A DNA stretch of 64,000 nt, taken from NCBI GenBank assembly GCA_016789445.1, contig JAEUQT010000001.1:67603-131602 (forward strand). The letters are read 5' to 3'. The position numbers and the translations under genes are program-made. Under the pieces are notes generated by a model, which saw only the letters and a program-made list of their open reading frames with translations, was not told where the DNA came from and ran no database searches. Of the stretch, positions 8,608 through 40,756 are shown in pieces (position 1 is the first letter of the stretch; each line of letters begins with the position of its first letter). The stretch is from a bacterium (lineage in GTDB: Bacteria > Patescibacteriota > Minisyncoccia > Phycocordibacterales > UBA2100).

Positions 8608-9168
8608 TTAGAACGAAACCTTCACCGGCTGACGAGCAGCCTCTTCTCCTTCAGCAAGAGCGAAGAATTCACGCGTCTTGAACCCGAATGCGTTGCCGAT
8701 GATATTACCCGGGAACTGTTCGAGCGCGTTCTGGAGATCCTGGACGACCGAGTTGTAGAAGCGGCGTGCTGCTTGGATCTTGTTCTCGGTGTCGGAGAGT
8801 TCGCGCTGCAATTCCAGGAAGTTGGTGTTCGCCTTCAAGTCCGGATAGCTCTCCGCTACTGCAAAAAGAGATTTGAGTGCGTCGGTGAGCATATTCTCTG
8901 CCTGCGCATGCTGCGCGACGGTCTGCGCACCCATAGCTGCAGTGCGAGCTTCGGTCACCTTCTGGAGCGTGCCCGCCTCATGCTGCATGTAGCCCTTCAC
9001 GGCTTCAACGAGGTTCGGGATGAGGTCGTAGCGACGCTTCATCTGCACGTCGATATCCGACCATGCTTCCTCCGCGCGATTGGTGAGCGCGACGAAGCGG
9101 TTGTACATGATGATAAGGAGGACGGCGATCGCCGCCACAACGCCCAGCACGATATAGAGAGTTGTCAT
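8608..9168 (-). CDS. lemA: LemA family protein
   Basis: N-terminal TM, then NRFVALTNRAEEAWSDIDVQMKRRYDLIPNLV, characteristic of LemA. Confidence 0.9.
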   Translation of the reverse strand: MTTLYIVLGVVAAIAVLLIIMYNRFVALTNRAEEAWSDIDVQMKRRYDLIPNLVEAVKGYMQHEAGTLQKVTEARTAAMGAQTVAQHAQAENMLTDALKSLFAVAESYPDLKANTNFLELQRELSDTENKIQAARRFYNSVVQDLQNALEQFPGNIIGNAFGFKTREFFALAEGEEAARQPVKVSF

Positions 9169-9194: not shown

Positions 9195-12100
9195 TCAGCG
9201 GATACCTCCCGGCGGGACACTGCAGCCACGAGGATTCGGCTCTGCTTCACACAGACACTTGATGAAGCTGTCCATCGCCTGCTCCGGATCACAGGTGCGG
9301 ACATCCTGCGGTGTCGGATTATTGCTTGAGCCATCATTCGATCCTTGCTGGGCGGACGAATTCTGCGAAGTAGGTCGCACCGGATTGCTTTGTGATGCCT
9401 GACTCGCCGCAATCTGCTCGTCGGTGAAGATGCGTGGAGGATCGGTGTCATCGCCGCGGACGCGGATCAGTGTCTCGTTCAGGAGCTTATCCTGCGCACC
9501 CTTCACGTTGCACACCAATCCGAAACGCGTCGATTCAGAAAGCGCACCGGAGTTGATCGAACCATTCTGTCCACCGCGCGCGAATACGGCGAAGTCCGAC
9601 GTCACGATCGCACAGGTCGAGCTGCTGACATCCGTACCCACGGTAGACCACGAGAGTGTTGTCGTGTCGCCATCATCGATAACCTGAGGGTTCCCGACGA
9701 TCGCACCGACCGGTGGTTCTGATGCGGGTTGCGATGGCTGTTGTGGTCGGGATTGATCACCCTCTTCTTCATCGCCACCCGTAAACCACTGCATGAGCCC
9801 TTGGAACAATCCTGACAACATATTCATGCCGCCACCGAAGAATCCTCCGTCGCCTCCGCTTGAACCTGCAGGTCCATAGCCGCCATATGCGATCGGACCT
9901 CCAGAACCGAGATCGCGACCGACTGAAGGGTCGGGACGCGGAGTATCAGTGCGTGGGTCAGGAGCAGGCTGACGCGGAGCGTCGGATGATGTCGTATCGC
10001 TAGAATCATCAGGTGTCGGTGCCGGCACCGGTGTCCCGCCTCCAGGCGGTATCTGGAATATCACACTAGTATCATCTTTGACTGGAATCCCATTGAAGTT
10101 GGTCGCGTCCTTCTGTGTCTCTTGCGGCGCCCCGTCTACCGTCACCTGCTGGTACGTCATCACGACACCGGTGAATCCGAGCGCACCGCAAATGAACTGC
10201 CGCACGCGTCCGCCGAGACAGAGTGCGTTCGCGATGCGGGTTGCGCGCGACGGCTCAGCATCATCTGCCGCTGCTGCGCCCGACCCGCCCGTAGTACCAC
10301 CTGCTCCACCCGAGCCTCCGTCGCTCGCCGCTTGTGCAGCACCGCCATATCGCGCCTCCCATTGCCCGAGTCGGCCGATCATGTCGTCAGCCGGTACTTC
10401 GGTATTCGCGCGAGCGATAGTGAGCGCGCGTGATTCCGCCGCCGCCCGTTCGCGCACCTTGTCCAAGCCGCTCGCCGCGAGTGCACGAGCTTCCGCATCA
10501 CCTTCCGGCGTATTCTTCGCTAACGCTTCTTCCGCACGCACGAGGTCTTGGATCGATTCATCGCCACGCGTAAGAGCGGTGGACATCTCTTTGTTCATGC
10601 TCGCAAGCTCAGTATCACGGACCGAAGGAATCCCGGATTGCGGCTCAGGCGTAACAGCGGCAAGGTCAGCAGCGTTACGCGCCACTATCTGCTGACGCAC
10701 CTGAAGCGCCTCCCTGAGTGTCGCGAGCTCCTGCATACGCTCTAATCGACTACCCTCGGAACGCGACCACGCATCGAGCCGTTGCGCGAATGAATCGTTC
10801 AAAGGAGCGGTAACTTCGGCAGGACGACCGGATCCGGTGAGTCGTGACCATCCGACCTGCGTATTGAAACGTGCACGGGCAAACGCATCGGAAAGCGCAT
10901 TGCGTGTACGAGAAATCAATCCTTCGTCCGCTATCGCAGGTGTTATTGGTCCGCCACCGGTCGTTAACGTCGGGGAGATCTCGCCGTCAGGACGAGCGCC
11001 GGTATTCTCCGGGAACGGGAGTTCAGGGTCCTGTCGCGGGAGCGGAGGCGGATTGAGTGCAGGATCTATCTCTTCCTCGCGGGCAATCGTCGGTGTGCGC
11101 CCCGAAGGAACACCGGGCTCCTGTCCCGGAAGATCCGCAGGACCTTGAGGCGTATTCGGAGTATCGGAAACGCGCGTAATCGACACTTCAAATGGACCTT
11201 TCGGTGCAGCGAGCGCGTCTGCCGAAGTCCACGTTCCCGGTGTTGCGGACGGGACATATGCGACCGGTCCTTCCTGATTCACGATCTGCGCTGCGCGCGC
11301 TTCTGCGATCCTTGCCTCCTCGACGAGACGAAGCTGCTCGGCTTCAGCAAGGCGCTTCGCCTCTGCACGAGCCGCATCTGCTGCGGCAATCGTCTTCTCC
11401 GCTCCACTTCGAGCCGCGGTTTCCAGTGCCTGCCGTTCAGCAAGTGAATCACTCAATCTCGCGGGGGTAGTCTTGATTGCTTGCAACCCTTCCGCGGCCC
11501 CATCTACACCGAATGTCGCTCCGAGAGATACCTTGCCGTGACTATTCGGGACAAGCCTCATCAGCTGCGGGCGCTGCGTCTCAAGCAACTGCGAAGTGCT
11601 TTTGACTGGTTCGAACAATTCACGAACTCGAGCGGCAGTAGCCGCATCAAGTGCGCCTAGGGCTTCCGCATCGGCGATCGCGCGCTCGAACCGATTGACC
11701 TGAGCGACTGACTTCTGAATAGCACTGCTGAGCGATTGCGGATCAAGTACTTTTCCTTGATTGAAATACGCACTCATCAAGCGATTTACGTTATCAGCGA
11801 GTTTCTTCGAGGTATCGAGCTCAGCAAGGAACACTTTTGCTGCGACCGCCTTCGCCTCAGCCGCCTCAACACCGGTAAGCGCCCCCTTCACTTCTGCAGA
11901 AGCTACCGCGGTCGCATCAGCACCGCTAATATCTTCCACACGAACGGTCTTCGATGCGATCTGAACGGGACGCTCCGCAACTTGCACGATTTCATTACCT
12001 AATCGATTCGACGGATTGAGCGCGATCGAGGTCGGAGTCGTCGGGCGAATCATTTCCCCTTCTGTCAAAGGTACCCGCGTTATTGCAATCGGACGCGATT

Positions 12101-15100
12101 CCGCAAGCACCGTCGGTGCAACTGGCTCAAGCGACTGCCCTGTTGGTGATGGCAAGATTTCAGTATTTTCCGGTGTACGCACCGGTACGCCCGGTTCGTT
12201 TGATGCGACCACCTGACCCGAGGAAGGCGTGTTCGCACTGCCTCGAGGGTTTTCCGGAACTGCCGGACCGACTAATGCAGTGCGGATATACGAACCCGCG
12301 TCAGCGATTCTGTTAGCGACCCATGACGGCGCATTACCGATGGCAATCGGTACTTCTATGAGATCGAGCGGGGAGAATCCGCGCGGCTCAGCGGCACTGC
12401 CTGGAGTTCGAGCGGGCTCATTCACGGCGACTGGCGTAGGCTCAGTCGGTCGCACGACGGGCGCCGGTTCGCTCACCAGAACAGGAGAAGGACGCACATT
12501 AAGCGGTGATGTGGCTTCAAGCGCAGACGGAGTGGTAAAATTTCTCACCAATTCCCCTCCCGACTGCGGCGCAGCACTAAAGGGCGACACACGATTGAAT
12601 GCAACATCCGCGATTGCAGCTGCCGGAGCGTCCGGTACCGCGACATTTTCTGCAACCAATACCCCGCCGCCCATATCGCGAAGCGCAGTGCGGACGGTTG
12701 AATCTAACGGACCACCTGCTGGCAGGTTCGCTACAGCGGTATTTACAAGTGCGCGATCGGAAACAGAGGTAAAGTCGGCAGCAGAATCAATTCCCGGACG
12801 ATATCCGAGCATACGCACCACATTCGCTGCTGCAGCACCTTCAACATATCGGTCTGCCACACGCGCACTGCTTTCAGCTTTATGCTGCACCCATGAATGG
12901 GCATACACTTTATCTGAAGGAATGTTGTATCGCTCCTGCAAGAAACGCCCGAGTTTAGCGGCCGTATCGAGCTGTTCAGCAGTAAGCGGATTTTGGAGGC
13001 GTCCCGGCGGATTACCCGCAAATTCAATGCCTATCGTATTCTCGCTGGTGATTACTCCGCGCGTTTGAGAGTTATCGATATATTTATTATCTCCACGCAA
13101 ACTGCTTCCACTTCGAATATGCTTCGGATTGGCACTCTCAGGAGCTGCCCAATAGAAGGTGCCGTCACGTTCCACCCAGATAGTTGTACCGACTTTATTC
13201 GGCCTCGACATCTGCGCTCGTGCATGCCCGACAGCATACGAGCCTTCTGTCTGGTGCATTATGATCGCAACACGTTTTGGCAACGTCTCCGGAGCTTGGA
13301 GCGGAACCATGAAATGCCCTTTCCCCTCCAATCCCGGAATTTCCGGGCGACCAGTCGCCTTCGCCACCTCACCGATAGTGCGCTGTGGCTGAAGCTCGCC
13401 GTTCAGGACCGCAAGCTGCCGCCCGATTTCAGCATCTGCACGCGCCGCCTCAGCAGCACTGACTCCACCCTGACCATCGCGACGCCCTGCCAATTCACGC
13501 GCCACGTTGTCACGCAGCTTCTTATATGCACTCGTCCCCACTGCCGATGGCTGCTCCTTCAAGACTTGTGCCGCAAGTTTCGTGCGAGGAATATATGGAT
13601 TCTGCTTGATGACCTGATTCACGATGTCTTTTACACCCTGCTCCGTCGGCGTGAAGATTCGGCCGAAGAAATCATCGACCTCATTAAGCGGATTGATCGC
13701 TTCTAGCTGCGGAGTTCCGACCGGTGCACGCGGAGGAATATTAGCAGTGAGAGATCGAGATGCCAGCTCATCGGGAGTAACGACCACGTTCTGCACGGGA
13801 GGAACAGTGGCGGTTTGAGCTGAGACGGTATTGGGAGGGGGCGCAGTCTCAACTCGTGCAACGAGAGTAGCACTGCCATCTACGGGTCCAGGTGTATAAC
13901 CAGTACCCTCGAGCACGGTTACTTTCACATCATTCAACACGCCACTGTTATTCCCATATTTGTTATTACTTAAATAGCGCATTGACGCCTCGTTGAGATC
14001 AATGATTCTTCCCGGAACGAGAGGACCATTATCATTGATCTTTACGATGAGCTTCTTATCTCCTTGTTCAACCAATGCGAATCCATTGCGAGGATAGTTC
14101 CCGTGCCCCATCTGATATTTCGCCGCCAAATCCGTCTGAAGCGCCGCTTCGTATGCTTTAGGGTTGTACCGTGCGCCGGTAGCCAGCTTCGTCCCGCCGG
14201 TGCGCCAGCCCGGCTTCGCTGGGTTATATGTCGATGCAGCACCTGATTCAACTCCCTTAATGCCGTCAATTTCGACGGTCACGGGAAGAGTGGCTTGCGA
14301 GGCAGGAGCTCCTTGCGCAGGAGTAACCGAACTGACTATGGGCACATCAATACCCGCAACCGGAATCGGTGGCAATGGATTCGTCAGCATACCGACACTC
14401 AACGCGACAGGAGCTGCAACACGACGAACGCTTTGCACTGCACCCTGCACTGCATCTCCGACATTACTTAACGCTTGCGAGAATCGCGTCGGCAAAGAGG
14501 TGAATGCAGCGGCCGGCGTACTCAATCCAGACGCAGGCAATCCAGCAGCAACTGGCGGTATTTCCGCCGCCGCTCGCGGCTTCGTCGAGAATGGTGACTG
14601 CGATGCCGGGCGTGAAGAAACGCTGATAGCTCTATTATTCGGCAGCGGTGCAGACGAACCCGCATCCGGCACGACAACGGGCCGAGGTGCAGGAGTGAAT
14701 CCTGCCTCAGGGACGATGCCCCGCGCCCGCATCTCGCTCTCCAGTGCATTCATCACATTCCTACCATTACCCGATGTGACGAAGTCTGTCTTACCCATCG
14801 AATTATGCAGACGGTTATATACAGCTCTCTCGAATGCTTCTGGCGCGACCGTACCTGATGCAACCTCCGCCTGAACAGCCTCGCGCGCGCTGCGCGTATA
14901 TGCATTCGCAAATCGCGATTCAGCCCCAGAAAGATCGTCTGCAAACGCTGGATTGAAATCCAAATCCGCAGCGCGAGCAGCTGCAGCTGCTCCGCCTGCG
15001 CCTGTATTACTTCCACTTCCGAAGAGGGTTCTTCCGGCAGCAGACACACCATCAAATGCACTACCGAGGGGGTTGCCCACGGATCCGATGCCTGCGACTT

Positions 15101-17168
15101 TTACTGCTCCTATACCCATCTGTTGAGCGGCCGCAATGCCTGTAGTCTTCCCAAGCACCCCTGCTACTGGCAACGCCCCAGCAAAGCCTCCCGCAAGGGT
15201 CCAGTTGTTCGCCTGATCAACCGATTGCGTAACGACCTGCGCTGTCGCATTCGCGATCACGCCCTCGCGCCACGCGGCGGGGTCGCTAATGAAAAGTCCA
15301 AGGTCGCGCAAACCTGCTTCCCCTCCGAAAATAGGCTTGTATAACAACGTTCCGAACCCGAACATCTCATTTACCTGAGCGCGCGCTTGCACGGCATCGT
15401 ACATCTGCTTCTCAAAGGCCGGATCACTGCCATCAAGCATCCTCTCCAGATTCGAATTCACCGTCTTCAATTGATCCGATGTCTCGCGCAACAAGGAGTT
15501 CACGTCGCCTTCCGGGATATCGCGCACTCCCATCGCCTCAAGCGCAGCAAGCTGATCAACTCGAGCGCGCAATTGATCACGGACGTCAATGGCATTTCCC
15601 GCTATTTCCTTCAGATTTGCGGAGGTGCTTTGTAGCGCAAGAGCTTTATCATTCGCCCGCTGCGACGCAGCCGATACACGTGCGCCCTCAGGAGTAGTTT
15701 CAAGCAGTTCTTGCACGGCTGCATCACTGAATTCCGGAAGCGCGGCCATCTGACCATTCGCTGCTAATCCTGACGCATTCGAACTAAGGATTCCCAGAGC
15801 TTCTGCACGAGATGCTTCCTGAAGTCCTGAATTAAGCTGAGCTAGTGTCTGTGCTCGATCGGAATAATTAATGAAGCGATCCATCGTTCGTGCAAACATG
15901 CCACGATCATCGGGCGCGGACTGTACGATACCGATAGCTTCCTTGTATTGGTCCGAAGAAGGGGTCCAACCCTGCTCCTTGCTGCCAAGTATTTCGTTCA
16001 CATAACCGCTCCGTACTTCCTCAGCGACCTGTGGGCTATCAAGCATCTGTGCGAGTTCCGTCACATTCTGCGGCAATCCGGCGATCGGAGTATCGGCACC
16101 CCGTGCAACATCAATGACAGGAAGCTCGTTTCCTGTAGGCGCATCGGGTAGCCCCGCTCCAGGCAGAGCCTCTTCAGTCGGCGTGAGTACCGCCATCGCC
16201 TTTTCCCACTGAGCAGCTGCAAAATCCCTCACTCCCTGCCATGCATTGGATGCAGTTTCTTGGGCAGCCACAAGCGCATTGCCGATCGCCGATCCTGCTG
16301 ATGACTGTACGCCAGGCAGATTCTCCGCCATCGACGCCCATGGATTCGAGAATGTACCTCCTGTTGACGGCGTATCTGATACGAACGACCCCGGACCACC
16401 CGAAGGAGATGGTGCGAAATTCCATCCCTGCGGTGGCGCGATTGAAGTCGGATTCTGCAGATACTGCTGCATCCGACCGAAAACCGTATCGACCGGATTC
16501 ACTTTTGTGCCGGTGATATCGCTCACTGCATTCAATGAGTCGGCCTGTTGTCGCGCAAGCGACTCGAGAGCACCTTGGCTTGCAGGAGCCGTGAGCGGCC
16601 TACCGCCCAGAGAATCTATTGCCTGATTGAGATCATCGAATCCAGAGGAGCCAGGATCGCGTATCGGCGTCGGATCCGGCGGAAGCTCACCGAATGCCTT
16701 CTGCAATCCCTCATAATATTCCTGCGCAGATGTCTGCGGGATGTCGCTTCCTGTCTGTCCGGGTTGCTGAGTGCCCCCGATATTCGTCTCACCGTTCTGC
16801 ATCGCCTCTTTGGCTTCGTAGAGCAAGCTCTGACATGTCGGACCAGCGACAGTACAGGACGGCATCTGCTTGCCTCCTTGTATGCCCGCCTTCCAGCAGG
16901 TCTTAGTACTCATGTAACCGGTTATGTTCACCTTATCGCACTCATTCTTGTTGCCCGTCTGATTCGATTGCGTTGAAGCGCTACCGGTGGAAGGAGTAAT
17001 CGTCTCTTCGAGCTGCGGGCATTTGCCGCACGCCTCCGTCACCGCCCCTCCGACGCTGCAATTGACCTTCGGCTGATCCGCCGGACAGGTGAGCGCAAAG
17101 ATCGCAGCGGGCGATGCAATGAGGATCGAGATTAACGACAGAAGAGACGCGGTCCGCGCGTAAGTCAT
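9195..17168 (-). CDS. giant secreted multidomain protein (2657 aa): signal peptide, Cys-rich N-terminus, Ala-rich coiled coils, Amidase_2 (PGRP-like) domain, RlpA-like DPBB domain, C-terminal Cys-rich module
   Basis: Continuous ORF. Signal peptide MTYARTASLLSLISILIASPAAIFA. Amidase_2 pattern IIMHQTEG...IGIEFAG...YAHSWVQHK at about 12820..13285. DPBB pattern IVKINDNGPLVPGRIIDLNEASMRYL at about 13940..14290. C-terminal module matches the 893-aa paralogue. Confidence 0.9.
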   Translation of the reverse strand: MTYARTASLLSLISILIASPAAIFALTCPADQPKVNCSVGGAVTEACGKCPQLEETITPSTGSASTQSNQTGNKNECDKVNITGYMSTKTCWKAGIQGGKQMPSCTVAGPTCQSLLYEAKEAMQNGETNIGGTQQPGQTGSDIPQTSAQEYYEGLQKAFGELPPDPTPIRDPGSSGFDDLNQAIDSLGGRPLTAPASQGALESLARQQADSLNAVSDITGTKVNPVDTVFGRMQQYLQNPTSIAPPQGWNFAPSPSGGPGSFVSDTPSTGGTFSNPWASMAENLPGVQSSAGSAIGNALVAAQETASNAWQGVRDFAAAQWEKAMAVLTPTEEALPGAGLPDAPTGNELPVIDVARGADTPIAGLPQNVTELAQMLDSPQVAEEVRSGYVNEILGSKEQGWTPSSDQYKEAIGIVQSAPDDRGMFARTMDRFINYSDRAQTLAQLNSGLQEASRAEALGILSSNASGLAANGQMAALPEFSDAAVQELLETTPEGARVSAASQRANDKALALQSTSANLKEIAGNAIDVRDQLRARVDQLAALEAMGVRDIPEGDVNSLLRETSDQLKTVNSNLERMLDGSDPAFEKQMYDAVQARAQVNEMFGFGTLLYKPIFGGEAGLRDLGLFISDPAAWREGVIANATAQVVTQSVDQANNWTLAGGFAGALPVAGVLGKTTGIAAAQQMGIGAVKVAGIGSVGNPLGSAFDGVSAAGRTLFGSGSNTGAGGAAAAARAADLDFNPAFADDLSGAESRFANAYTRSAREAVQAEVASGTVAPEAFERAVYNRLHNSMGKTDFVTSGNGRNVMNALESEMRARGIVPEAGFTPAPRPVVVPDAGSSAPLPNNRAISVSSRPASQSPFSTKPRAAAEIPPVAAGLPASGLSTPAAAFTSLPTRFSQALSNVGDAVQGAVQSVRRVAAPVALSVGMLTNPLPPIPVAGIDVPIVSSVTPAQGAPASQATLPVTVEIDGIKGVESGAASTYNPAKPGWRTGGTKLATGARYNPKAYEAALQTDLAAKYQMGHGNYPRNGFALVEQGDKKLIVKINDNGPLVPGRIIDLNEASMRYLSNNKYGNNSGVLNDVKVTVLEGTGYTPGPVDGSATLVARVETAPPPNTVSAQTATVPPVQNVVVTPDELASRSLTANIPPRAPVGTPQLEAINPLNEVDDFFGRIFTPTEQGVKDIVNQVIKQNPYIPRTKLAAQVLKEQPSAVGTSAYKKLRDNVARELAGRRDGQGGVSAAEAARADAEIGRQLAVLNGELQPQRTIGEVAKATGRPEIPGLEGKGHFMVPLQAPETLPKRVAIIMHQTEGSYAVGHARAQMSRPNKVGTTIWVERDGTFYWAAPESANPKHIRSGSSLRGDNKYIDNSQTRGVITSENTIGIEFAGNPPGRLQNPLTAEQLDTAAKLGRFLQERYNIPSDKVYAHSWVQHKAESSARVADRYVEGAAAANVVRMLGYRPGIDSAADFTSVSDRALVNTAVANLPAGGPLDSTVRTALRDMGGGVLVAENVAVPDAPAAAIADVAFNRVSPFSAAPQSGGELVRNFTTPSALEATSPLNVRPSPVLVSEPAPVVRPTEPTPVAVNEPARTPGSAAEPRGFSPLDLIEVPIAIGNAPSWVANRIADAGSYIRTALVGPAVPENPRGSANTPSSGQVVASNEPGVPVRTPENTEILPSPTGQSLEPVAPTVLAESRPIAITRVPLTEGEMIRPTTPTSIALNPSNRLGNEIVQVAERPVQIASKTVRVEDISGADATAVASAEVKGALTGVEAAEAKAVAAKVFLAELDTSKKLADNVNRLMSAYFNQGKVLDPQSLSSAIQKSVAQVNRFERAIADAEALGALDAATAARVRELFEPVKSTSQLLETQRPQLMRLVPNSHGKVSLGATFGVDGAAEGLQAIKTTPARLSDSLAERQALETAARSGAEKTIAAADAARAEAKRLAEAEQLRLVEEARIAEARAAQIVNQEGPVAYVPSATPGTWTSADALAAPKGPFEVSITRVSDTPNTPQGPADLPGQEPGVPSGRTPTIAREEEIDPALNPPPLPRQDPELPFPENTGARPDGEISPTLTTGGGPITPAIADEGLISRTRNALSDAFARARFNTQVGWSRLTGSGRPAEVTAPLNDSFAQRLDAWSRSEGSRLERMQELATLREALQVRQQIVARNAADLAAVTPEPQSGIPSVRDTELASMNKEMSTALTRGDESIQDLVRAEEALAKNTPEGDAEARALAASGLDKVRERAAAESRALTIARANTEVPADDMIGRLGQWEARYGGAAQAASDGGSGGAGGTTGGSGAAAADDAEPSRATRIANALCLGGRVRQFICGALGFTGVVMTYQQVTVDGAPQETQKDATNFNGIPVKDDTSVIFQIPPGGGTPVPAPTPDDSSDTTSSDAPRQPAPDPRTDTPRPDPSVGRDLGSGGPIAYGGYGPAGSSGGDGGFFGGGMNMLSGLFQGLMQWFTGGDEEEGDQSRPQQPSQPASEPPVGAIVGNPQVIDDGDTTTLSWSTVGTDVSSSTCAIVTSDFAVFARGGQNGSINSGALSESTRFGLVCNVKGAQDKLLNETLIRVRGDDTDPPRIFTDEQIAASQASQSNPVRPTSQNSSAQQGSNDGSSNNPTPQDVRTCDPEQAMDSFIKCLCEAEPNPRGCSVPPGGIR

Positions 17169-17285: not shown

Positions 17286-17543
17286 TCAGATACCTCGGGC
17301 GGGCGCCGGACCGAGATCGACCGGACCCTTGCGGAGCTGCTCCTTCATGTGGCGCTCGAGCGCGCACTGGTCGGTGATTTCGAATCCGAACTCATCGGGC
17401 ACCGTCACGGTGTCCGCGACAGAGCACGTGTCCGACTGCAGCCAATCATGACTGCCGACCAACATCGTACGCGGCTGATCGCCGGCAAGAGCTGCTGTTG
17501 CCACAAGAGCGGCACCCAGTACGAGAAGCGACGTTGCCTTCAT
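17286..17543 (-). CDS. small secreted protein (85 aa, signal peptide, 2 Cys)
   Basis: ATG at 17543 preceded by AAAGGAGA. MKATSLLVLGAALVATAALA signal. Own terminator. Sits between the two giant-protein genes. Confidence 0.7.
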   Translation of the reverse strand: MKATSLLVLGAALVATAALAGDQPRTMLVGSHDWLQSDTCSVADTVTVPDEFGFEITDQCALERHMKEQLRKGPVDLGPAPARGI

Positions 17544-17698: not shown

Positions 17699-20380
17699 TT
17701 ACTGCACCAGCGAGCAGCCGTTCGGGTTCGGCTCCGCTTCGCAGAGACACTTGATAAATGTATCCATCGATTGTTCTGGGTTACAGGTGCGCACATCAAT
17801 CGGATTCGGATTCGAGGAGCTGCCGCCAGATGCGCCCGCTTCCGCACCCGCTCCCCCTTGTACCGGTGCCGCCGTGGAAACCCTGCCGCTTTGTGCGAAG
17901 AGCCGCTTCGGTTCGTTCTCGTCGCCATTCACTCGAACCACCGTCTCATTCACGAACTTATCCTTCCCGGATTCGATGTCACAGATGACCCCGAAGCGTG
18001 TCGAGGAATTGAGTGCAGGTGTCGTGAGCTCGCCATCTTTCCCGCCCCGCTTGATCACGTTCAGCGTGGAGTCGACGACGACGCACGAGAGCGTGCCGAC
18101 GCTCGTCCATGAAAGTACGCTGGTATCGCCATCATCTATAGATGAAGGGTTGGCTGTGATGGATACAACGGCAGCAGGTTGTGTTGGTTTCGGCTGTGAG
18201 GGAGTTGGAGCTGAATTCGATTCGTCATCGTTGAAGAAATTAAGAACGGTACCGAGGAGCGCGCTCAGTATTCCCAGACCTCCTTGCAGGAATGAGTTCG
18301 GGCGCGATGCGGACCGCTGCGTCTGCGTCGGCTTTGGATCCGGTTGCGGCGCTGGCTGCGGAGCAGGTGCTGGGGTTGGAGCCGGCTTGGTATCTGGCGT
18401 CGGCGTGGGTTCAGGTTCAGGAGTCGGCGTCGGTTCCGGCTGAGCAGGAGTCTCCGTAACAGGAATTTCGACCCCCTCCGGAATACTCGCACCGACTCCC
18501 AGCACATACCCGAGACGATCGATCGCCGTGCGCGCAGCTTCTGCCACACGCTCGCCGATCTTGCTCAAACCTTCAAGCAGACGCGAAGGGGTCGGTGCCG
18601 GCTGCGGGGCCGCAGCCGCTATTTCAGATTCGAGATCGATTTCAAAGGTCGTACCTTCAAGTGCTTTCTCGATGGCCGGATCGATCGCACGAAGTTCATC
18701 GAATTTCTTATTGATGATAGCGCTTCGCTCTTCGTCAGTGGTTGCGGCATCAAATTCTTGAACAAGTTCGTTGTATTCTCGCTCGAACTGCGCACGCTGC
18801 TGCGGAGTAAGCGTGTTCTCCAGCGCCTCGGCTTCGGGCGGCGTAGCATCCGTCATCACCGATCCGCCTTGAGCGACTTGTACCGTCGAAGGGATCGCGC
18901 GTACGTCAGCGGCGATCTTCTCGAGACCCTCACGCATCGAGGCAGCCTTCAATTCATTGAGCGCCTGTCGGTAGGCCACGCCTTCCTTCGAGCCGATGCC
19001 GACCCAATCAAGCATCTCGCCGAACCACGAACGATCATCAAGTGCTTCGCGCGTTTCTTCTACCGCAGCAAATGCCTCTGCTGCTGTCGTAGGAATGATG
19101 GTGGCGACTACCGACGGAGGGAGCGGCGTTACCTCGGGAATCGGAACCGTGATGCCGCTCGGATTCTCTGCATCCTTAACCACGGCTGGCGGCAAGGTGC
19201 CGCGCGGTGTATCGCCGATGAGAGGCTCTCCGGAACCGACGGTCGGCAAACCGATGCGATCCGCAGGCTGCAACGGGACGATCGGGAATCCGGTAAGGAT
19301 GTTGCGTTCCAAGGGAAGATCAAGCGGCGATTGTGTCGGCTTGTTGATGTCGATGCCGCGCGATTCGTTGAGTCGCTTCAGTTTCTCGTCGAGCGCCTTG
19401 AGACGATCCTGCGCCGCAGCATCGGCGACCTGTACCGGCGGCTTGGTAGTGACCGGCGTCGGTTGCGGTTGCGGTTGCGGCTGTGGTGTCGGTGCAGGTG
19501 CAGGAGCTGGCGTCGGTGAAGAATTTCCTGAGGAGAGACCGCCTCCCCCGCCGAATCCGCCGAAAAGGCTGCCGATAGTGGAGATGAAATTCGAGAACAG
19601 ATTGAACCCCGCAGACGCACCAGTGCCACCGAATGAGGGTGACGCATCACCGAAGGTATTCCCGAACGGATTCCCTCCGCTGAAAACACCGTCTAGATAT
19701 TCCCTGTTGCCGGAGATGATTCCTCCGATACTCGGCTTGGTTCCCGGTTTCAGCGTGAAGGGAGAGCCCGAATCGGTAAACGTGGTTCCTGGTTTCGGTG
19801 GTGTTACCGGCTTTGGCGATTCCGAAATAAGTTCACCCTCCCATCCCTCTCCTGTCGGCGACGGGCGGACACTTCCACTAGTTCCACCTCCACCTGAACC
19901 GCCGCTCGGAATTGAAGGCGCGGACGGACTCGGGCTCGGCGTTGAAGGCTGCGGAGCACTCGGCGTCGGCGAAGGGGTTGGTGTAGAGGGAGTGGGGGTC
20001 GGGGTTGGTGCTGGTTTAAGTGGATCATCTTTTCCACTTGAGCCACCAGGGATTTCGTACGGCTTATCTTCGAGAGGCTTTCCATCGCACTTGAGCGATG
20101 CCACGCATTTTCCTGACTTACATATTGAAGTGATGACAGGATTGGCGATGTCTTTGCACTCCAAACCGACCTGATCTCCTGATATCGGCTCACGCATACA
20201 CACTTCCCCCTCTTTCAGAGGATCGAAACCATTCTCAACCCCTTGGCCGGCAGCGCAGCGGAAATTACCGACATCTTGGCGTGTACTACCTCGAAGGGGC
20301 GTATCTTGCGCAAAAAGCGTAAGCGGCATACTCGCTGCGAACACAAAAAGTGCCGCAGAGATCTGAAGATGTATCCTCAT
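17699..20380 (-). CDS. large secreted protein (893 aa) with Pro/Thr- and Gly-rich linkers and C-terminal Cys-rich module paralogous to the giant protein
   Basis: Signal peptide MRIHLQISAALFVFAASMPLTLFA. PTPTPEPEPTPTP linkers. C-terminal SIDDGDTSVLSWTSVG...DVRTCNPEQSMDTFIKCLCEAEPNPNGCS. Minus-strand TATAAT 7 nt upstream of the ATG (plus 20388..20393). Confidence 0.85.
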   Translation of the reverse strand: MRIHLQISAALFVFAASMPLTLFAQDTPLRGSTRQDVGNFRCAAGQGVENGFDPLKEGEVCMREPISGDQVGLECKDIANPVITSICKSGKCVASLKCDGKPLEDKPYEIPGGSSGKDDPLKPAPTPTPTPSTPTPSPTPSAPQPSTPSPSPSAPSIPSGGSGGGGTSGSVRPSPTGEGWEGELISESPKPVTPPKPGTTFTDSGSPFTLKPGTKPSIGGIISGNREYLDGVFSGGNPFGNTFGDASPSFGGTGASAGFNLFSNFISTIGSLFGGFGGGGGLSSGNSSPTPAPAPAPTPQPQPQPQPTPVTTKPPVQVADAAAQDRLKALDEKLKRLNESRGIDINKPTQSPLDLPLERNILTGFPIVPLQPADRIGLPTVGSGEPLIGDTPRGTLPPAVVKDAENPSGITVPIPEVTPLPPSVVATIIPTTAAEAFAAVEETREALDDRSWFGEMLDWVGIGSKEGVAYRQALNELKAASMREGLEKIAADVRAIPSTVQVAQGGSVMTDATPPEAEALENTLTPQQRAQFEREYNELVQEFDAATTDEERSAIINKKFDELRAIDPAIEKALEGTTFEIDLESEIAAAAPQPAPTPSRLLEGLSKIGERVAEAARTAIDRLGYVLGVGASIPEGVEIPVTETPAQPEPTPTPEPEPTPTPDTKPAPTPAPAPQPAPQPDPKPTQTQRSASRPNSFLQGGLGILSALLGTVLNFFNDDESNSAPTPSQPKPTQPAAVVSITANPSSIDDGDTSVLSWTSVGTLSCVVVDSTLNVIKRGGKDGELTTPALNSSTRFGVICDIESGKDKFVNETVVRVNGDENEPKRLFAQSGRVSTAAPVQGGAGAEAGASGGSSSNPNPIDVRTCNPEQSMDTFIKCLCEAEPNPNGCSLVQ

Positions 20381-20466
20381 TAGGTCTATTATATGCAGAG
20401 CGGCCGCCCTTTCGGGCGGCCGCTGCTTCTATTCTGTTGAGAACTCTAGCTGACGTAGCGACGGGA

Positions 20467-22122
20467 TTACTCCATCCCCATGCCGCCCATGCCCATGTCG
20501 CCGACTGCCGGATTGGCTTTCTTGTCTTCAGGTTCATCAGCGACCGCCGCTTCAGTTGTGAGAAGGACCGCTGCAGCGGAAGCCGCGTTCTGTACGCCCG
20601 AGCGCGTCACCTTCACCGGATCGACGATACCCGCTTCGATCATGTCGACGATCGTCGGTTCGGTCGATTCGCTTGCAGCGTCGTAGCCGAAGTTGCCGCC
20701 CTTCGTGACGACTTCGCGCAGAATCACTTCCGCATCTTCACGGCCGGCGTTCTTCGCGATCTGGAGAAGCGGAGCGGAAAGTGCGGTGATGAGGATGCGG
20801 TAGCCGATCGAGAATTCGTCGTGCGCACCTGCTTTCACGTTCTTCGCGATCTTCGCACCGACTTTCGCAAGCGCGGAACCGCCGCCCGGGACGATTCCTT
20901 CCGCGATAGCCGCCTTCGTCGCGTTGACCGCGTCTTCGATCTTGTCCTTGAGGTATTTCATCTCGGTCTCCGTTGCTGCACCGACACGGATGACCGCGAC
21001 ACCGCCGGAGAGCTTCGCGATACGCTCGTCGAGCTTCTCCGTATCGAATTTCGAATCCGAATTCTCTGCCTGCTTCTTGAGCTGCGCGACACGCTTCTCG
21101 ATGTCTGCTTTCTTTCCCTTGCCACCGACGATGACGGTCGAATCCTTCGTCGCGACGACGCGCTGTGCGCGACCGAGCATCGTGAGATCCGCTTTCTCGA
21201 GAGTCGAACCGGTGTCATCGGAAATGACCTGTGCACCGACGGTGATCGCGATATCCGCAAGGATCTCCTTCTTGCGATCGCCATAGCCCGGTGCCTTCAC
21301 CGCGAGCACGCTGAACGCGCCACGGAGCTTGTTGAGGACGAGCATCGGGAGCGCTTCGCCATCCACATCATCCGCGATGATGACGAGCTCTTTCTTGCCA
21401 CCTTGGGCTAGCTTCTCCAAGAGAGGAAGGATGTCTTTCACCGTCGAGATCTTCTTATCGGTGATGAGGATCGGCGCATCCTTCGCTTCTGCTTCCATAC
21501 GCTCCGCATTGGTGATCATGTACGCAGAGACGTAGCCTTTATCGAACTCGAGTCCTTCGACATAATCCGTCTCGATGCCGATCGACTGCGATTCTTCGAC
21601 GGTCACCACGCCATCCTTGCCGACTTTCTCGACGACATCCGCGATCTTCGCGCCAAGCTCTTCAGATTCAGCGGAGATGGATGCGACCTGACGCGTCTCC
21701 TCCTTGGTCTTGATCGGCTTCGCCATCTTCTTCAACTCATCGACAGCGTCCTTTGCCGCAGCTTCGATGCCGCGACGGATCATCATCGCGTTCGCGCCCA
21801 TTGCCGTGCGCTTCAAGCCTTCGTGGACGAGCGCCTGCGTGAGGACGACTGCGGTCGACGTACCATCACCTGCCTTGTCGTTCGTCTTCGTCGCGACCTC
21901 CTTCACGATGCCCGCGCCCATGTTCTCGAACTTATCCGCGAGCGTGATCTCCTTCGCGATGGAAACGCCGTCGTTGGTGATGACCGGACCGCCCCATGAG
22001 CGATCGATCGCGACATTGCGACCACGCGGACCGATGGTCACTTTCACTGCACCGGCGACGATGTCGACACCGCGCTTGAGCGCGTTGCGGACATCTCCCT
22101 CAAAGATTACTTGTTTTGCCAT
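20467..22122 (-). CDS. groL: chaperonin GroEL (60 kDa)
   Basis: MAKQVIFEGDVRNALKRGVD N-terminus. GGM-repeat C-terminus. Confidence 0.97.
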   Translation of the reverse strand: MAKQVIFEGDVRNALKRGVDIVAGAVKVTIGPRGRNVAIDRSWGGPVITNDGVSIAKEITLADKFENMGAGIVKEVATKTNDKAGDGTSTAVVLTQALVHEGLKRTAMGANAMMIRRGIEAAAKDAVDELKKMAKPIKTKEETRQVASISAESEELGAKIADVVEKVGKDGVVTVEESQSIGIETDYVEGLEFDKGYVSAYMITNAERMEAEAKDAPILITDKKISTVKDILPLLEKLAQGGKKELVIIADDVDGEALPMLVLNKLRGAFSVLAVKAPGYGDRKKEILADIAITVGAQVISDDTGSTLEKADLTMLGRAQRVVATKDSTVIVGGKGKKADIEKRVAQLKKQAENSDSKFDTEKLDERIAKLSGGVAVIRVGAATETEMKYLKDKIEDAVNATKAAIAEGIVPGGGSALAKVGAKIAKNVKAGAHDEFSIGYRILITALSAPLLQIAKNAGREDAEVILREVVTKGGNFGYDAASESTEPTIVDMIEAGIVDPVKVTRSGVQNAASAAAVLLTTEAAVADEPEDKKANPAVGDMGMGGMGME

Positions 22123-28860: not shown

Positions 28861-28891
28861 AGTCCCCGATGAAAACATCGGGGACATTCTT
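28861..28891 (+). terminator. intrinsic terminator after Cys-rich gene
   Basis: GTCCCCGATG-AAAA-CATCGGGGAC followed by ATTCTTT. Confidence 0.55.
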
Positions 28892-29006
28892 TGAGAACTC
28901 TCGGTTCTCAACGGGCGATTTCGCTTCGCTCATCACCCTGCTCTCCGACACGGGAAAACTACAGTTTTCCCGACCCCTTTCGCCTCTCGTTGGCTGAAGG
29001 CCAACG
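28890..29006 (+). repeat. structured intergenic repeat, copy A (three hairpins)
   Basis: TTGAGAACTCTCGGTTCTCAA, then CCCTGCTCTCCGACAC, then GGGAAAACTACAGTTTTCCC, then CTCGTTGGC-TGAAG-GCCAACGAG. Homologous to copies at 34429..34542 and 39985..40095. Confidence 0.7.
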
Positions 29007-34328: not shown

Positions 34329-34428
34329 ATCTGATAAGAGAGGTTTCCCTACCGTTTAATGAGCGAATTGTAACGTATCTAGCGGACCACAATGCTCGCT
34401 TCGCCGTGCAACGGGGATAACTTAAAAC

Positions 34429-34542
34429 TTGAGAACCCTCGGTTCTCAACGGAGAACTTCGCTTTGCTCGTTCCCCTGCTCTCCGACACGGGGAACCGGC
34501 CGCGGTTCCCCGACCCCCTCCGCGATTCGTCTAAGACGAATC
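34429..34542 (+). repeat. structured intergenic repeat, copy B
   Basis: TTGAGAACCCTCGGTTCTCAA, CCCTGCTCTCCGACAC, GGGGAACCGGCCGCGGTTCCCC (compensatory version of hairpin 2), GATTCGTCT-TAAG-ACGAATC. Confidence 0.7.
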
Positions 34543-35102: not shown

Positions 35103-36791
35103 TCAGCCGAAGGTAAACGTAAACGCTTCTAAGGTACCGCTCTTCACCCTGATTTCGAGCACGTGCTCTTCCCCACTGGGATTGCGGATGAGCTCGTAGA
35201 GGCGCTCATCCTGTACCCGTACCACACCTGTTTGTACATCTTTGCCCGCAGCAGCATTCACGATCTCACCATCCTGCCATATCTCAAGTTCAGCTCCTTG
35301 CGCGGAACCTGCCACCATAAATACCTCACCCGCTTTATAGCGGAATACGATCGTTGCGTCCTCCGATACTGAAGCTGCATGTTCGGGAGTGATGTTCCAG
35401 GTGCCGCCAAGATACAGCGCATTCAGCACGAACGAATCCGGAAGCGTAAATGATTGCTGCCCCGGTACGAAACGCTTCCCTCCTGCAAGATTTTGATTGC
35501 GCAGCGATCCGAAATAGATCTCCGGGCTTTGCGCAAGATTCCGGGCTTCACTTCGCTGATCGGCAACCAAGGGGAGAGACACATCGGGTTCGGGAAGACT
35601 AAGTTTCTCTGCGCGATCCCGCAATGCCTCGCGGATCTTCTTTTCAGTCTCGGCGTACCCGCCTTCGCCGATATGGTCGTAGATGATATTCCCCTCGATA
35701 TCCACGAGATATTTGCGGGGCCAGTACTGATTGCCGCAGGCGCGCCACGTCGCGTAATTATTATCCAAGACCACCGGATAGGTGATACCGAATTTCCGCA
35801 TCGCCTCCTCCACGTTGTTGATGTCCTTCTCGAACGCGAATTCCGGCGTGTGAATGCCGATGATCTCCAGACCCTGATCCTTGTATCGTTCGTACCAGGC
35901 GTTCATATACGGGAATGTGCGTTGGCAATTGATGCAGCTATAGGTCATGAAATCGATGAGAATGACCTTCTTCCCCACCAGTTCACCGACCGTGATTCCG
36001 TCGGTATTCACGAATCCTGCGGGGGACTCGATCTCGAAATACGGACGGATGCCCGTCTCTTCTTCCATGCCGATACGCTGCAGGAGTCGCTGTTCCCAAC
36101 GGACGGAATCAACATACCCGCTTTCCAAGAGCCACACTTCAAACTTCTTTTCGTAGCCCGATGCGATAAGTAGACCGAGCGCAATAAAGAGGATGCCGAC
36201 CGTCTTTTTGAGGGCGCCACGAGAATCAGCTGCGCGTGTAAGACGATCCGCGAACCGCTGTCCGATGAGCGCGATACAGATGAGCATGATCGCAAGCCCA
36301 GCGGTATACGCGAGAAGATAGGAAAAGCCGAGCAGAAATGAAGCCGGCAGCACCGTGGCAAGGATGACGAAATACGTCGGCGAACACGATGAGAATACCG
36401 GACCGAGTGCGACGCCGATTACGACATCGCCCCAGAAGCTTTTCTTCTGATACCCCGTACCGACGAGTTTATTCGAACGCGATGAGAGTTTTGCCATCCC
36501 GGGGATTCGTTCCCACAAGGAGGGGAATATGAACGTGAATCCCAAGAAGACGAGCAGCCCTCCGGATAGATACGTCCAGAAACTTTCAGGTACGGCAATG
36601 AAGAGCGATGAGACTTTAAGGAGGAGCGTGAAGAGGATTATCGAGAGCGAAACCGAAGCGACGACGACATAGGGCGTGAGCCTGCTCCTCTCTGCCGCGG
36701 AAGAGCCCACGACCACCGGCAGGAGCGGTAGTATGCACGGAGCAAGGACGGTCAGCGTACCGGCAAGAAACGATACCGCAAGAAGCGCCAT
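35103..36791 (-). CDS. thiol:disulfide interchange protein, DsbD/CcdA-like transmembrane domain fused to thioredoxin-like (TlpA/ResA-type) domain
   Basis: N-terminal TM with LAPCILPLLP, central TM bundle, then thioredoxin CXXC (YSCINCQRT). Confidence 0.82.
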   Translation of the reverse strand: MALLAVSFLAGTLTVLAPCILPLLPVVVGSSAAERSRLTPYVVVASVSLSIILFTLLLKVSSLFIAVPESFWTYLSGGLLVFLGFTFIFPSLWERIPGMAKLSSRSNKLVGTGYQKKSFWGDVVIGVALGPVFSSCSPTYFVILATVLPASFLLGFSYLLAYTAGLAIMLICIALIGQRFADRLTRAADSRGALKKTVGILFIALGLLIASGYEKKFEVWLLESGYVDSVRWEQRLLQRIGMEEETGIRPYFEIESPAGFVNTDGITVGELVGKKVILIDFMTYSCINCQRTFPYMNAWYERYKDQGLEIIGIHTPEFAFEKDINNVEEAMRKFGITYPVVLDNNYATWRACGNQYWPRKYLVDIEGNIIYDHIGEGGYAETEKKIREALRDRAEKLSLPEPDVSLPLVADQRSEARNLAQSPEIYFGSLRNQNLAGGKRFVPGQQSFTLPDSFVLNALYLGGTWNITPEHAASVSEDATIVFRYKAGEVFMVAGSAQGAELEIWQDGEIVNAAAGKDVQTGVVRVQDERLYELIRNPSGEEHVLEIRVKSGTLEAFTFTFG

Positions 36792-39926: not shown

Positions 39927-39984
39927 AACCGCACTATACCAACGCCGCGTATTTTTTCCATGAACCAACAAGATTCTCTTGTTT

Positions 39985-40095
39985 TTGAGAACCCTCGGTT
40001 CTCAACGGACGCCAGCGCTTCGCTCGGCGCCCTGCTCTCCGACACGGGAAAACTACAGTTTTCCCGACCCCTTTCGCCTCGCGCTGCTGCGCGAG
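39985..40095 (+). repeat. structured intergenic repeat, copy C
   Basis: TTGAGAACCCTCGGTTCTCAA, CCCTGCTCTCCGACAC, GGGAAAACTACAGTTTTCCC, CTCGCGC-TGCTG-CGCGAG. Confidence 0.7.
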
Positions 40096-40100
40096 CCGCT

Positions 40101-40694
40101 TCAAGTACCCGAAAGCTTGGTAAATACGACCAGGCGCTGATCGTACGTCTTGGCGGATTTCACCCACGAGCCGCCGCAGGTTATGAGATTCAGCCGCGCA
40201 GAACCCGAAGGATTGAAAATGATCTCCGTCGGCACCGCGTCATACGGGTACGATCGCTTACCGGTGACCACGAATGTGCGCCGGGTCCCGTCACGCCGCT
40301 CGACGATTATCTCATCGCCGGTTTCAAGTTCATCGAGGCGTTTGAAAACACCAGAGAGCCCGAGTCCGTTGTCGACATGTCCGGCAATGACCGAAGATCC
40401 TGCGCCGCCGGGCACGACGCCGTACTTGTACCAACCGACATCGGTGAAATTGCTCGGCACTCCCATGTTGCCTGCAGCATTTACGCCGACATCCTGCACA
40501 TTCGCATCGATACCGAGCGAAGGGACGATGAGGCGTACCGGATGGTGCTGCGGATTCGAGGCCACCACCTCATCAGGTGGCACCGTGATCTCCGTATCCG
40601 GGTTGTAGAAGAACGCACGCACGATGGTCGTGGTGAATATCGCGACCGCACAGAGCGTGAGCGTGAATATGAAAAAACGCGAAAGTCTGGCCAT
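40101..40694 (-). CDS. sortase family transpeptidase
   Basis: N-terminal TM, catalytic His (VIAGHVD), TLXTC motif (LNLITCGG) and conserved Arg. Confidence 0.85.
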   Translation of the reverse strand: MARLSRFFIFTLTLCAVAIFTTTIVRAFFYNPDTEITVPPDEVVASNPQHHPVRLIVPSLGIDANVQDVGVNAAGNMGVPSNFTDVGWYKYGVVPGGAGSSVIAGHVDNGLGLSGVFKRLDELETGDEIIVERRDGTRRTFVVTGKRSYPYDAVPTEIIFNPSGSARLNLITCGGSWVKSAKTYDQRLVVFTKLSGT

Positions 40695-40756
40695 ATGAAT
40701 ACTAAGACGTGCGCAGCCAAGGCATCTTTCGATGCCCGGGCTGCGCAAAGGCACTG

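Follow-up and report, generated by a model that had tools for sequence, protein, structure and literature searches.

The 64-kb window analysed here (64,000 nt of contig JAEUQT010000001.1, assembly GCA_016789445.1) contains an uninterrupted open reading frame (ORF) of 8 kb that runs from ATG to stop on the minus strand and encodes a modular protein of roughly 280 kDa. Two predicted peptidoglycan-directed domains are found in this giant protein, an RlpA-like double-psi beta-barrel (DPBB) and an N-acetylmuramoyl-L-alanine amidase of the Amidase_2 family. From the N- to the C-terminus, it is composed of a signal peptide, a tip that is Cys-rich and of low complexity, a region of about 650 residues with Gly/Ala-rich tracts and no known domain, the DPBB, a helical linker, the amidase, about 270 further residues, a conserved core, and a C-terminal module. 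The coordinates are collected in Table 1. The single ORF, the N-terminal signal peptide, the Gly/Ala-rich tracts, the Cys-rich N-terminus and C-terminal Cys module (8 and 4 Cys, respectively), and both domains with their nucleotide ranges had been proposed in an initial annotation of the same DNA; all of these were recovered, the two domains with Pfam scores above the curated cut-offs at the places given. The domain order had to be corrected, because the amidase had been placed before the DPBB, and the helical stretches before both. The DPBB comes first, and the helical sequence that had been quoted, AEAKRLAEAEQ, lies about 500 residues after both domains.

Table 1. Coordinates of the giant gene, its parts and the neighbouring genes in the 64-kb window.
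Feature	Nucleotides	Residues	Strand	Remarks
Giant ORF	9195..17168	2657 aa	minus	ATG to stop, uninterrupted; stop codon 9195-9197
Signal-peptide-like N-terminus	17094..17168	~aa 1-25	minus	MTYAR + hydrophobic core + AIFA
Hypervariable N-terminal tip	16266..17093	~aa 26-301	minus	8 Cys; Pro/Gly/Ser/Thr-rich tracts; cassette-swapped
RlpA-like double-psi beta-barrel (Pfam DPBB_1)	13953..14243	aa 976-1072	minus	33.3 bits vs 28.8 cut-off, E 5.8e-8
Conserved helical linker between the enzyme domains	13392..13691	~aa 1160-1259	minus	94-98% identical in P0003-P0005
Amidase_2/PGRP-fold N-acetylmuramoyl-L-alanine amidase domain	12768..13331	aa 1280-1467 (modelled)	minus	AlphaFold, Foldseek, Pfam
Pfam Amidase_2 (PF01510) match	12882-13268	aa 1301-1429	minus	41.7 bits vs 26, E 1.8e-10
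Family-specific core	11169..12071	~aa 1700-2000	minus	70-100% identical in all full-length homologues; partly helix-rich
C-terminal module	9198..9851	aa 2440-2657	minus	44% identical to the C-terminus of the 893-aa neighbour, E 8e-51
Small secreted ORF	17286..17543	85 aa	minus	Signal peptide + ~65 aa (2 Cys); immediately upstream of the giant gene
893-aa paralogous secreted protein	17699..20380	893 aa	minus	Signal peptide, Cys-rich N-terminus, Pro-rich linkers, C-terminal module
groEL	20467..22122		minus	Conserved upstream boundary of the variable island
lemA	8608..9168		minus	Conserved downstream boundary; begins 26 nt after the giant stop

The DPBB contains the motifs GAASTYNP, KINDNGP, and GRIIDLN, the last of which includes the putative catalytic residue, D1057. 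When compared with solved structures, the domain matched PA4485 (PDB 4avr) with an E of 1.3e-3 as a single sequence and 9e-13 as a family profile, and GRIIDLN aligned with GRIIDVS of this protein. The family profile also matched residues 288-391 of the phage A-1(L) hub (PDB 8kea; E 5.8e-11). D1057 was kept in all 111 DPBB relatives compared, and D1046, the Asp of the IND motif, in 109 of them. By way of the shared motif, D1057 probably corresponds to the catalytic Asp of RlpA (D168); the comparison was made with PA4485, and it also used the E. coli RlpA motif RVISLS. The residue is catalytic in Pseudomonas aeruginosa RlpA, and the Ser found in its place makes E. coli RlpA inactive (PMC9712689). 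RlpA acts on glycan strands whose peptides have been removed by amidases (PMC9712689), and this offers a rationale for having an amidase and a DPBB on one chain. The cut-off of the NCBIfam rlpA model, TIGR00413, was not reached (24.9 vs 82.15 bits), and no SPOR domain was matched in the giant protein at E <= 1 (Pfam). A canonical lipobox is not present either, as A-L-T precedes Cys28. Thus, an RlpA-like domain is present, but the protein is not an RlpA.

For the DPBB-amidase region, 408 relatives were retrieved when 1.84 billion representative proteins were searched exhaustively with HMMER. Among the 26 relatives compared over the amidase domain, E1382 was found in all 26, K1430 in 25, H1424 in 24, and H1305 in 21 out of 22. 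E1382 is part of IGIEFAG and aligns with the Glu of SIGIE in AmpDh2. A 17-sequence amidase profile searched against the PDB matched 7f5i (4.7e-8), LysC (1.7e-6), AmpDh2 (1.3e-3), and AmiD (1.9e-3), and in these alignments H1305 and H1424 fell on the Zn histidines of AmpDh2, LysC, and 7f5i. The hhalign comparison with T7 lysozyme gave a probability of 91% and paired H1305 with H17, H1424 with H122, K1430 with K128, and E1432 with C130. The Zn triad that the initial annotation had set as a check is, therefore, present in its two His, but the third position is Glu1432 and not Cys or Asp. This Glu is kept in the close family and in P0006, a counterpart protein described below, and 16 of the 26 relatives have Asp at 1431 (AHNWIDYKD.RYCEGC). 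Collectively, the amidase keeps His/His, Glu, and Lys, and the DPBB keeps its Asp, so that the claim of two peptidoglycan-directed domains stands, with key catalytic residues that appear, from the alignments, to be largely intact.

Structure prediction upheld the amidase fold. The AlphaFold model of aa 1280-1467, built on a 17-sequence alignment, had a pLDDT of 84.5 and a pTM of 0.85, with two poorly modelled inserts specific to this subfamily (aa ~1350-1369 and 1433-1439). All of the 50 PDB matches listed by Foldseek were Amidase_2/PGRP proteins, the top 24 with E <= 1e-3 and the others up to 7e-3, with a best E of 2e-6 and a TM of ~0.5. Moreover, 45 matches at E <= 1e-3 were found in the Foldseek viral set, predominantly named amidases or endolysins, and one PHROG family, an amidase family, matched the giant protein (E 1.3e-5). 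A word-index protein search with the 174-aa amidase domain returned nothing, which is a limit of the word index. The structure of the whole DPBB-linker-amidase unit (501 aa, 6 sequences), on the other hand, was poorly predicted, with a pLDDT of 42.5, and the linker was its only confidently helical part (pLDDT 70-83). This linker accompanies the amidase in other giant proteins as well (P0009 among them, 13 hits in all).

The export of the protein is suggested by its N-terminus, as aa 9-27 is the only segment in the whole sequence with a Kyte-Doolittle hydrophobicity (19-residue windows) above 1.4. The 16 cysteines are distributed as eight in the N-terminal region, two at about aa 2317/2327, two in the C-terminal beta-sandwich, and four at the extreme C-terminus, and such even-numbered groups suit an exported, disulfide-bonded protein. 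Elsewhere in the window, a DsbD-type membrane domain fused to redoxin/thioredoxin domains is encoded at 35103-36791 (minus strand), and its product is likely to be an extracytoplasmic disulfide handler, in keeping with the paired Cys of the secreted proteins. Stretches rich in helix formers and poor in Pro/Gly occurred in five places, each 40-78 aa long, and made up only 277 aa (10%) of the protein, and the description of the protein as having long coiled coils had to be abandoned. The quoted AEAKRLAEAEQ stretch does exist (aa 1935-1961), but it has no 3.5-residue hydrophobic periodicity of the heptad type (z = -0.7), and such a signal was found only at aa 1816-1873 (z = 3.8). Self-BLASTP detected no internal repeats in the giant protein.

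The amidase-coding segment had also been described as visibly AT-rich and, hence, as separately acquired. Its GC content was indeed low, 0.506 against a mean of 0.562 (sd 0.032) for 400-nt windows of the 64 kb, but this is a modest dip, at the 4.7th percentile; the DPBB segment, with a GC of 0.515, is at the 8.9th. The drop in the amidase was located mainly at codon positions 1 and 2, with GC3 values of 0.41-0.48, and GC3 was equal or lower (0.39-0.43) at aa 401-550 and 651-800 of the same ORF. The dip is explained by the amino-acid composition of folded domains when compared with the Ala/Gly/Pro/Arg-rich linkers, and acquisition of the amidase by horizontal transfer, as judged from base composition, was rejected.

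The genes around the giant one are all on the minus strand, in the order groES-groEL, the 893-aa protein, the 85-aa ORF, the giant gene, lemA, the M48 peptidase, DUF192, and ribonucleotide reductase. Further neighbours encode a solute-binding protein, RNase J, glycosylases, and others, and ordinary housekeeping genes are found farther upstream. No rRNA gene is contained in the window. The product of groEL, which lies two genes upstream, is 78-81% identical to its homologues in metagenome-assembled genomes labelled Kaiserbacteria, Paceibacterota, and 'Patescibacteria group', and ~52-57% identical to those of other phyla, indicating that the organism is a bacterium from the Candidate Phyla Radiation (CPR), class Paceibacteria, near Kaiserbacteria. 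This fits the epibiotic or parasitic lifestyle that the initial annotation had brought up. Motifs of the family-specific core gave no match in the GTDB genomes scanned, and the species of the window has no representative among these.

The interval between groEL and lemA differs among relatives. In 19 related Paceibacteria loci, lemA lies within about 1.1 kb after groEL and the giant gene is absent, and in the nearest Kaiserbacteria-like genomes this interval contains 3-8 kb coding for large proteins with signal peptides, some with PG_binding_1 or DPBB domains. The empty locus in relatives and the varied inserts indicate that the giant gene belongs to a lineage-specific variable island and not to a conserved operon. 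A perfect GC-rich palindrome at 20399-20424 (AGCGGCCGCCC TTTC GGGCGGCCGCT) follows the groEL stop and precedes the start of the 893-aa gene; it is likely a terminator or attenuator that splits groESL from the island. Scans of the neighbourhood ruled out a phage tail/endolysin, a type IV secretion system (T4SS), or a defence system as the context: no T4SS or virB4 was detected among the neighbouring ORFs scanned, phage genes were not found nearby, the giant protein gave no PHROG structural match, PADLOC found no defence system near the gene, and a search for relatives of the amidase motifs in IMG/VR was negative.

Apart from the island, three intergenic copies of an element of ~95 nt were observed at 28890-28992, 34428-34530, and 39984-40086 (plus strand), 64-89% identical to each other. 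The element contains two conserved hairpins, TTGAGAACCCTCGGTTCTCAA and GGGAAAACTACAGTTTTCCC, with some compensatory changes, and nothing in Rfam matched it at gathering scores. A small structured RNA is one possibility, a repeated element with a regulatory or terminator function another.

The C-terminal module of the giant protein is shared with its 893-aa neighbour, which has its own copy at aa 690-893 (nt 17702-18313) and in which no enzyme domain was detected. The module starts with a Gly-flanked amphipathic helix, which a Pro/Gln linker joins to an Ig-like beta-sandwich containing one pair of Cys; a Ser/Thr/Gln linker then leads to a 4-Cys knot at the end (DVRTCDPEQAMDSFIKCLCEAEPNPRGC). 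It is 81-100% identical among the homologues of the giant protein, and the stretches coding for the knot in the two genes (9222-9320 and 17714-17812) are 76% identical in DNA. The position of the 893-aa protein is conserved in seven loci (L001, L082, L083, L086, L087, L092, and L094). In more distant relatives, the module also ends other large proteins at the same locus, and it ends proteins in 14 metagenome loci; those with flanking sequence repeat the design of groEL, a module protein of 900-1000 aa, a giant module protein, lemA, and M48. A search with the alignment of the module gave 10 matches, mostly proteins of 183-389 aa on short contigs. No known anchor domain was found within it, and we infer that the module is the best candidate for attachment to, or assembly at, the envelope.

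Two observations in the window touch on surface attachment and on the linkers of the 893-aa protein. A sortase-like protein with the motif NLITCGG (40101-40754, minus strand) adjoins a 71-aa protein (40757-40972, minus strand) in which a signal peptide is combined with a sorting-type motif, VPNTG, and with a hydrophobic tail and charged end, and both together look like a minimal sortase-substrate pair; no motif of the VPNTG type was found in the giant protein. In addition, degenerate GC-rich periodic repeats of 6 to 18 nt, which encode Pro/Thr/Glu-rich linkers, were located at 18323-18442 and 19454-19516, within the 893-aa gene, and at 46589-46765, within an ORF about 27 kb away (45917-46912, minus strand). 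The latter may encode a further surface protein with similar linkers.

Only six full-length relatives of the giant protein were found (P0001-P0005 and P0007; 2686-3211 aa), each of them from an independent assembly. The contigs of P0001-P0005 were examined, and all five genes occupy the same locus, where the flanking proteins are highly similar (GroEL 97.5-99.8%, LemA 96-100%, and M48 94-99% identity). The giant proteins themselves are much less uniform. Over the tip (aa 1-300), most pairs of homologues are only 24-42% identical, with P0001 and P0005 reaching 82%. The region of aa 400-1100, which includes the DPBB, exists in three types, one in the window, P0001, and P0002, another in P0003 and P0005 with ~500 extra residues, and the third in P0004, and two DPBB versions of these close homologues share only about 20% identity. 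Among five proteins, aa 1100-1650, including the amidase, are 70-97% identical, and 50-residue windows of the catalytic block (aa 1151-1450) show 62-100% identity when P0001 and P0003-P0005 are compared. P0002 (L082, 3307-11367) keeps the DPBB, and about 550 unrelated residues with two Cys and no Pfam match replace its linker and amidase; the segments LLVFHETR, GIETA, and IVNHQQ suggested by eye a divergent Amidase_2 domain, and this was rejected at an hhalign probability of 0.1%. The core (aa 1650-2050) and the C-terminal module are conserved throughout the homologues. The family-specific core, in which the AEAKRLAEAEQ stretch lies, had no Pfam or PDB match; of the 153 retrieved proteins, those of the close family alone contain it. 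The relationships of the blocks are mutually incongruent, which points to recombination and makes these homologues mosaics. A first metagenome scan with the alignment of the giant homologues gave no matches.

An exchange of the tip could be followed at the DNA level in L086, a locus conspecific with the window. Their DNA is 97.8% identical over the stretch that starts at groES and reaches the stop of the 893-aa gene; identity is 96.3% from about codon 302 of the giant gene, through lemA, up to where the L086 contig ends. No nucleotide similarity was seen over the intervening 1.43 kb (17698-16266 of the window), which holds the small ORF and the first ~300 giant codons. This gap between near-identical flanks indicates that the small ORF and the tip were replaced jointly in L086, as one cassette. 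The small ORF has an AAGGAG Shine-Dalgarno sequence 7 nt before its ATG, a promoter-like site at 17612-17584, and a hairpin with a T-run after the stop, and the copy in L001 is 73% identical.

Three unrelated types of small ORF were found at this slot in six loci, and their co-variation with the tip is partial. The 128-aa type (L086 and L087) goes with similar tips, those of P0001 and P0005; the 85-aa type (window and L001) with partly similar ones (42% overall, 70-76% over aa 201-300); and the 88-aa type (L082 and L083) with dissimilar ones (33%). The small secreted protein could be a partner, a chaperone, or an inhibitor of the tip; Pfam gave nothing significant for the three types or for two tip variants. 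A diversity-generating retroelement was considered and rejected, since the repeat search of the whole window gave only the paralogous Cys-knot repeat (9222-9320 vs 17714-17812), and no reverse transcriptase was found among the ORFs scanned, which were not all of those in the window.

Positional counterparts in related lineages share this layout and kind of scaffold but, by their predicted domains, bear different enzymes. P0006 (3245 aa; GCA_041643055.1, L084, 10001-19738) occupies the same groEL-lemA position and contains Amidase_2, Peptidase_M15_3, and Zeta_toxin domains. The last is a P-loop kinase with a Walker A motif; it would be useless outside a target cytoplasm, which implies a payload that acts inside another cell. 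P0012 (4918 aa) has a Zn_peptidase domain, sub-threshold matches to GDSL-like and Peptidase_M78 families, and the C-terminal module, along with a DPBB of the same type as in the window (phmmer E 1e-50), with a Pfam DPBB_1 score below the cut-off. On contig Ga0155055_116, an ORF of at least 2542 aa whose N-terminus is homologous (L092, 12987-20612) is followed 2.6 kb further on by an open frame of at least 3551 aa that ends in the C-terminal module (L090, 14-10669); if continuous, this would be a protein of about 6980 aa, with CAP and Zn_peptidase domains. DPBB and amidase variants like those of the window also occur in other proteins of 1500-5900 aa. The payloads seen so far on this scaffold are, by predicted domain, a lytic transglycosylase, an amidase, an M15 peptidase, a Zn-peptidase, a CAP protein, a GDSL esterase, and a zeta-toxin kinase.

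From these data, we give about an even chance to the giant protein being a Sec-exported modular fibre on the cell surface, variable at its tip and equipped with an enzyme payload that can be exchanged and would breach the wall of a partner cell, as a proposed role. The C-terminal module would hold the protein at the envelope of the producer, and the variable Cys-rich tip would touch the surface of the partner (host). There, the amidase would remove stem peptides from the peptidoglycan, and the denuded glycan left behind, which lytic transglycosylases of the RlpA type prefer as substrate, would then be cleaved by the DPBB. Such a local breach could serve attachment, access, or the scavenging of muropeptides. 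The cultivated members of the CPR/Patescibacteria are epibionts, and homologues of a peptidase and a lysozyme are essential for the epibiotic growth of a cultivated Saccharibacterium (PMC12102498). The initial annotation had left the target as either the organism's own wall or that of a partner. Of these, a partner-directed role is favoured over housekeeping, on indirect evidence, because of the strain-level hypervariability with its tip swapping, the dispensability of the locus in relatives, and the zeta-toxin domain of a counterpart.

Several points weigh against this proposal. No domain could be assigned to about 85% of the protein, and LPXTG, SLH, LysM, SPOR, or PG_binding elements were not recognized in it by Pfam. 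Non-catalytic DPBB domains occur in expansins, as in E. coli RlpA. In the amidase, Glu1432 occupies a position where Cys (T7/PGRP) or Asp (AmpD/AmiD) is the rule, and its loop was modelled at a pLDDT of only about 57, with the subfamily insert also weak, so that the enzyme could be weakened or restricted to binding. In line with this, the protein might be a non-catalytic adhesin, a long variable fibre whose two domains bind peptidoglycan and whose role would be merely to attach the cell to a partner or to wall debris. The Amidase_2/PGRP and DPBB families include binding-only members, and PGRP-SA was among the fold matches; moreover, proteins at this locus in neighbouring lineages carry PG_binding_1, and E. 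coli RlpA offers an inactive precedent (PMC9712689). However, the other catalytic residues, H1305, E1382, H1424, K1430, and D1057, are conserved across the 26 amidase and 111 DPBB relatives, and a carboxylate (D1431 or E1432) is usually available beside K1430. Moreover, among solved DPBB relatives for which functional data exist, the closest is the phage A-1(L) hub, and it is lytic, its 'endoglucanase' domain lysing Anabaena cells in vitro (PMC10966104). Given this conservation, binding alone seems less likely than catalysis, and we regard the adhesin as unlikely.

The main rival to a partner-directed fibre is an autolysin of the producer's own wall, which would split the septum or act as a 'space-maker', opening local gaps for the giant protein and other surface structures to pass the wall; we consider it a real contender, although clearly the less probable one. 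The same pair of activities operates at the septum of Gram-negative bacteria, where amidases make the denuded glycan that RlpA cleaves (PMC9712689), and this also counts against a partner as the target. The location of the gene among same-strand housekeeping genes (groES-groEL to lemA-M48) and the conservation of the catalytic block would fit an autolysin, and reduced CPR genomes could merge such functions in one protein. A division enzyme would nevertheless not be expected to undergo cassette swapping of its tip between strains, nor does it sit well with 19 related Paceibacteria having an empty locus, a homologue (P0002) without a recognizable amidase, DPBB types that are only about 20% identical in close relatives, and payloads that vary by lineage, one of them with a zeta-toxin kinase. 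That kinase, which could act only inside a target cell, would instead suit a released multi-effector toxin, shed whole or in fragments to kill or lyse competitors in the manner of bacteriocins or MARTX proteins. The conserved scaffold with exchangeable payload resembles MARTX and polymorphic toxins, and the protein lacks a recognized anchor domain; but RTX repeats, a cysteine-protease autoprocessing domain, a type I secretion system, an immunity gene, and toxin-type C-terminal variability were not found, and the conserved C-terminus, shared with a non-enzymatic neighbour, looks like an attachment or assembly module. A released toxin is thus very unlikely in our view, and the surface fibre acting on a partner's wall is the reading that we prefer.

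The individual domains are ordinary, and giant wall-degrading surface proteins of host-dependent bacteria have been described before. In the passages of the literature that were searched, we met no description of this giant-protein family, its fixed place in the groEL-lemA island, the DPBB-linker-Amidase_2 unit, the C-terminal module in common with the neighbour, or the mosaicism of cassettes and payloads. To our knowledge, no member of the Paceibacteria (Parcubacteria) has been cultivated. For the question of how these very abundant, ultra-small bacteria attach to their partners and exploit them, the locus provides a testable candidate, with a two-step wall-cutting unit and, in neighbouring proteins, a candidate module for envelope attachment, and the strain-variable tip cassette could mark partner specificity in population metagenomes. 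If payload swapping holds, CPR bacteria would have evolved modular effector scaffolds of their own; if the protein is an autolysin of its own wall, it would be an ordinary, though oversized, cell-wall enzyme.

When compared with known systems, the DPBB resembles RlpA and PA4485 in its DPBB_1 fold family, the motifs INDxGP and GRIIDL(S/N), and the position of the catalytic Asp (D1057), but the secreted protein of 2657 aa in which it is embedded has neither SPOR domain nor lipobox and belongs to a CPR bacterium of the monoderm type. With T7 lysozyme, AmpD/AmpDh2/AmiD, PlyL/XlyA/LysC, and the catalytic PGRPs, the amidase shares the fold, both Zn His, the AmpD/PlyL-type Glu, and the T7 K128-type Lys; it differs from them in having Glu1432 at the position of the third Zn ligand, the two inserts, and a TM of ~0.5, and most relatives in its subfamily have Asp one residue before this position and the RYCEGC motif. 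The hub gp15 of the Anabaena myophage A-1(L) (8kea) likewise combines, on one chain, a DPBB-type 'endoglucanase' (266-430) and a peptide-cleaving domain, and both of its enzyme domains lyse target cells from outside (PMC10966104). It is, however, a phage structural protein of a cell-puncturing device, and its partner enzyme is a peptidase and not an Amidase_2. VirB1-like two-domain hydrolases from the conjugation systems of monoderms, such as TraG (pIP501) and PrgK (pCF10), also present in Patescibacteria, are a further case of a secreted glycan- and peptide-cleaving pair that opens peptidoglycan locally (PMC12102498), but they combine SLT with CHAP (or LytM), are much smaller, and adjoin virB4. 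Giant surface proteins of 1392-4163 aa in the CPR predator Vampirococcus, seen as devices for attachment or wall degradation (PMC8080830), are similar in size and export, and the 'Archaeovorins' of Omnitrophota are giant exported proteins, interpreted in the same way, with occasional SLT domains (bioRxiv 10.1101/2023.11.21.568195); neither has a sequence relationship to the protein described here. No match to RTX or FHA repeats, an autoprocessing protease, or dedicated secretion or immunity genes was obtained with Pfam, NCBIfam, or PADLOC. Effectors of the MARTX and CdiA type have a conserved scaffold with strain-variable, recombining enzymatic modules, a likeness to the giant protein, but here it is the N-terminus and the middle that vary and the C-terminus that is conserved. 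It is conceivable, though we think it rather doubtful, that the groEL-lemA island encodes an undescribed class of modular effector-display fibres, built on a conserved scaffold of signal peptide, Cys-rich tip, core, and the C-terminal module that a non-enzymatic partner protein also has, which would present or deliver interchangeable enzymes to a host whose range is set by the tip and its cognate small-protein cassette; such fibres would be analogous in function to MARTX, CdiA, and the tail-fibre/chaperone cassettes of phages, and evolutionarily unrelated to them.

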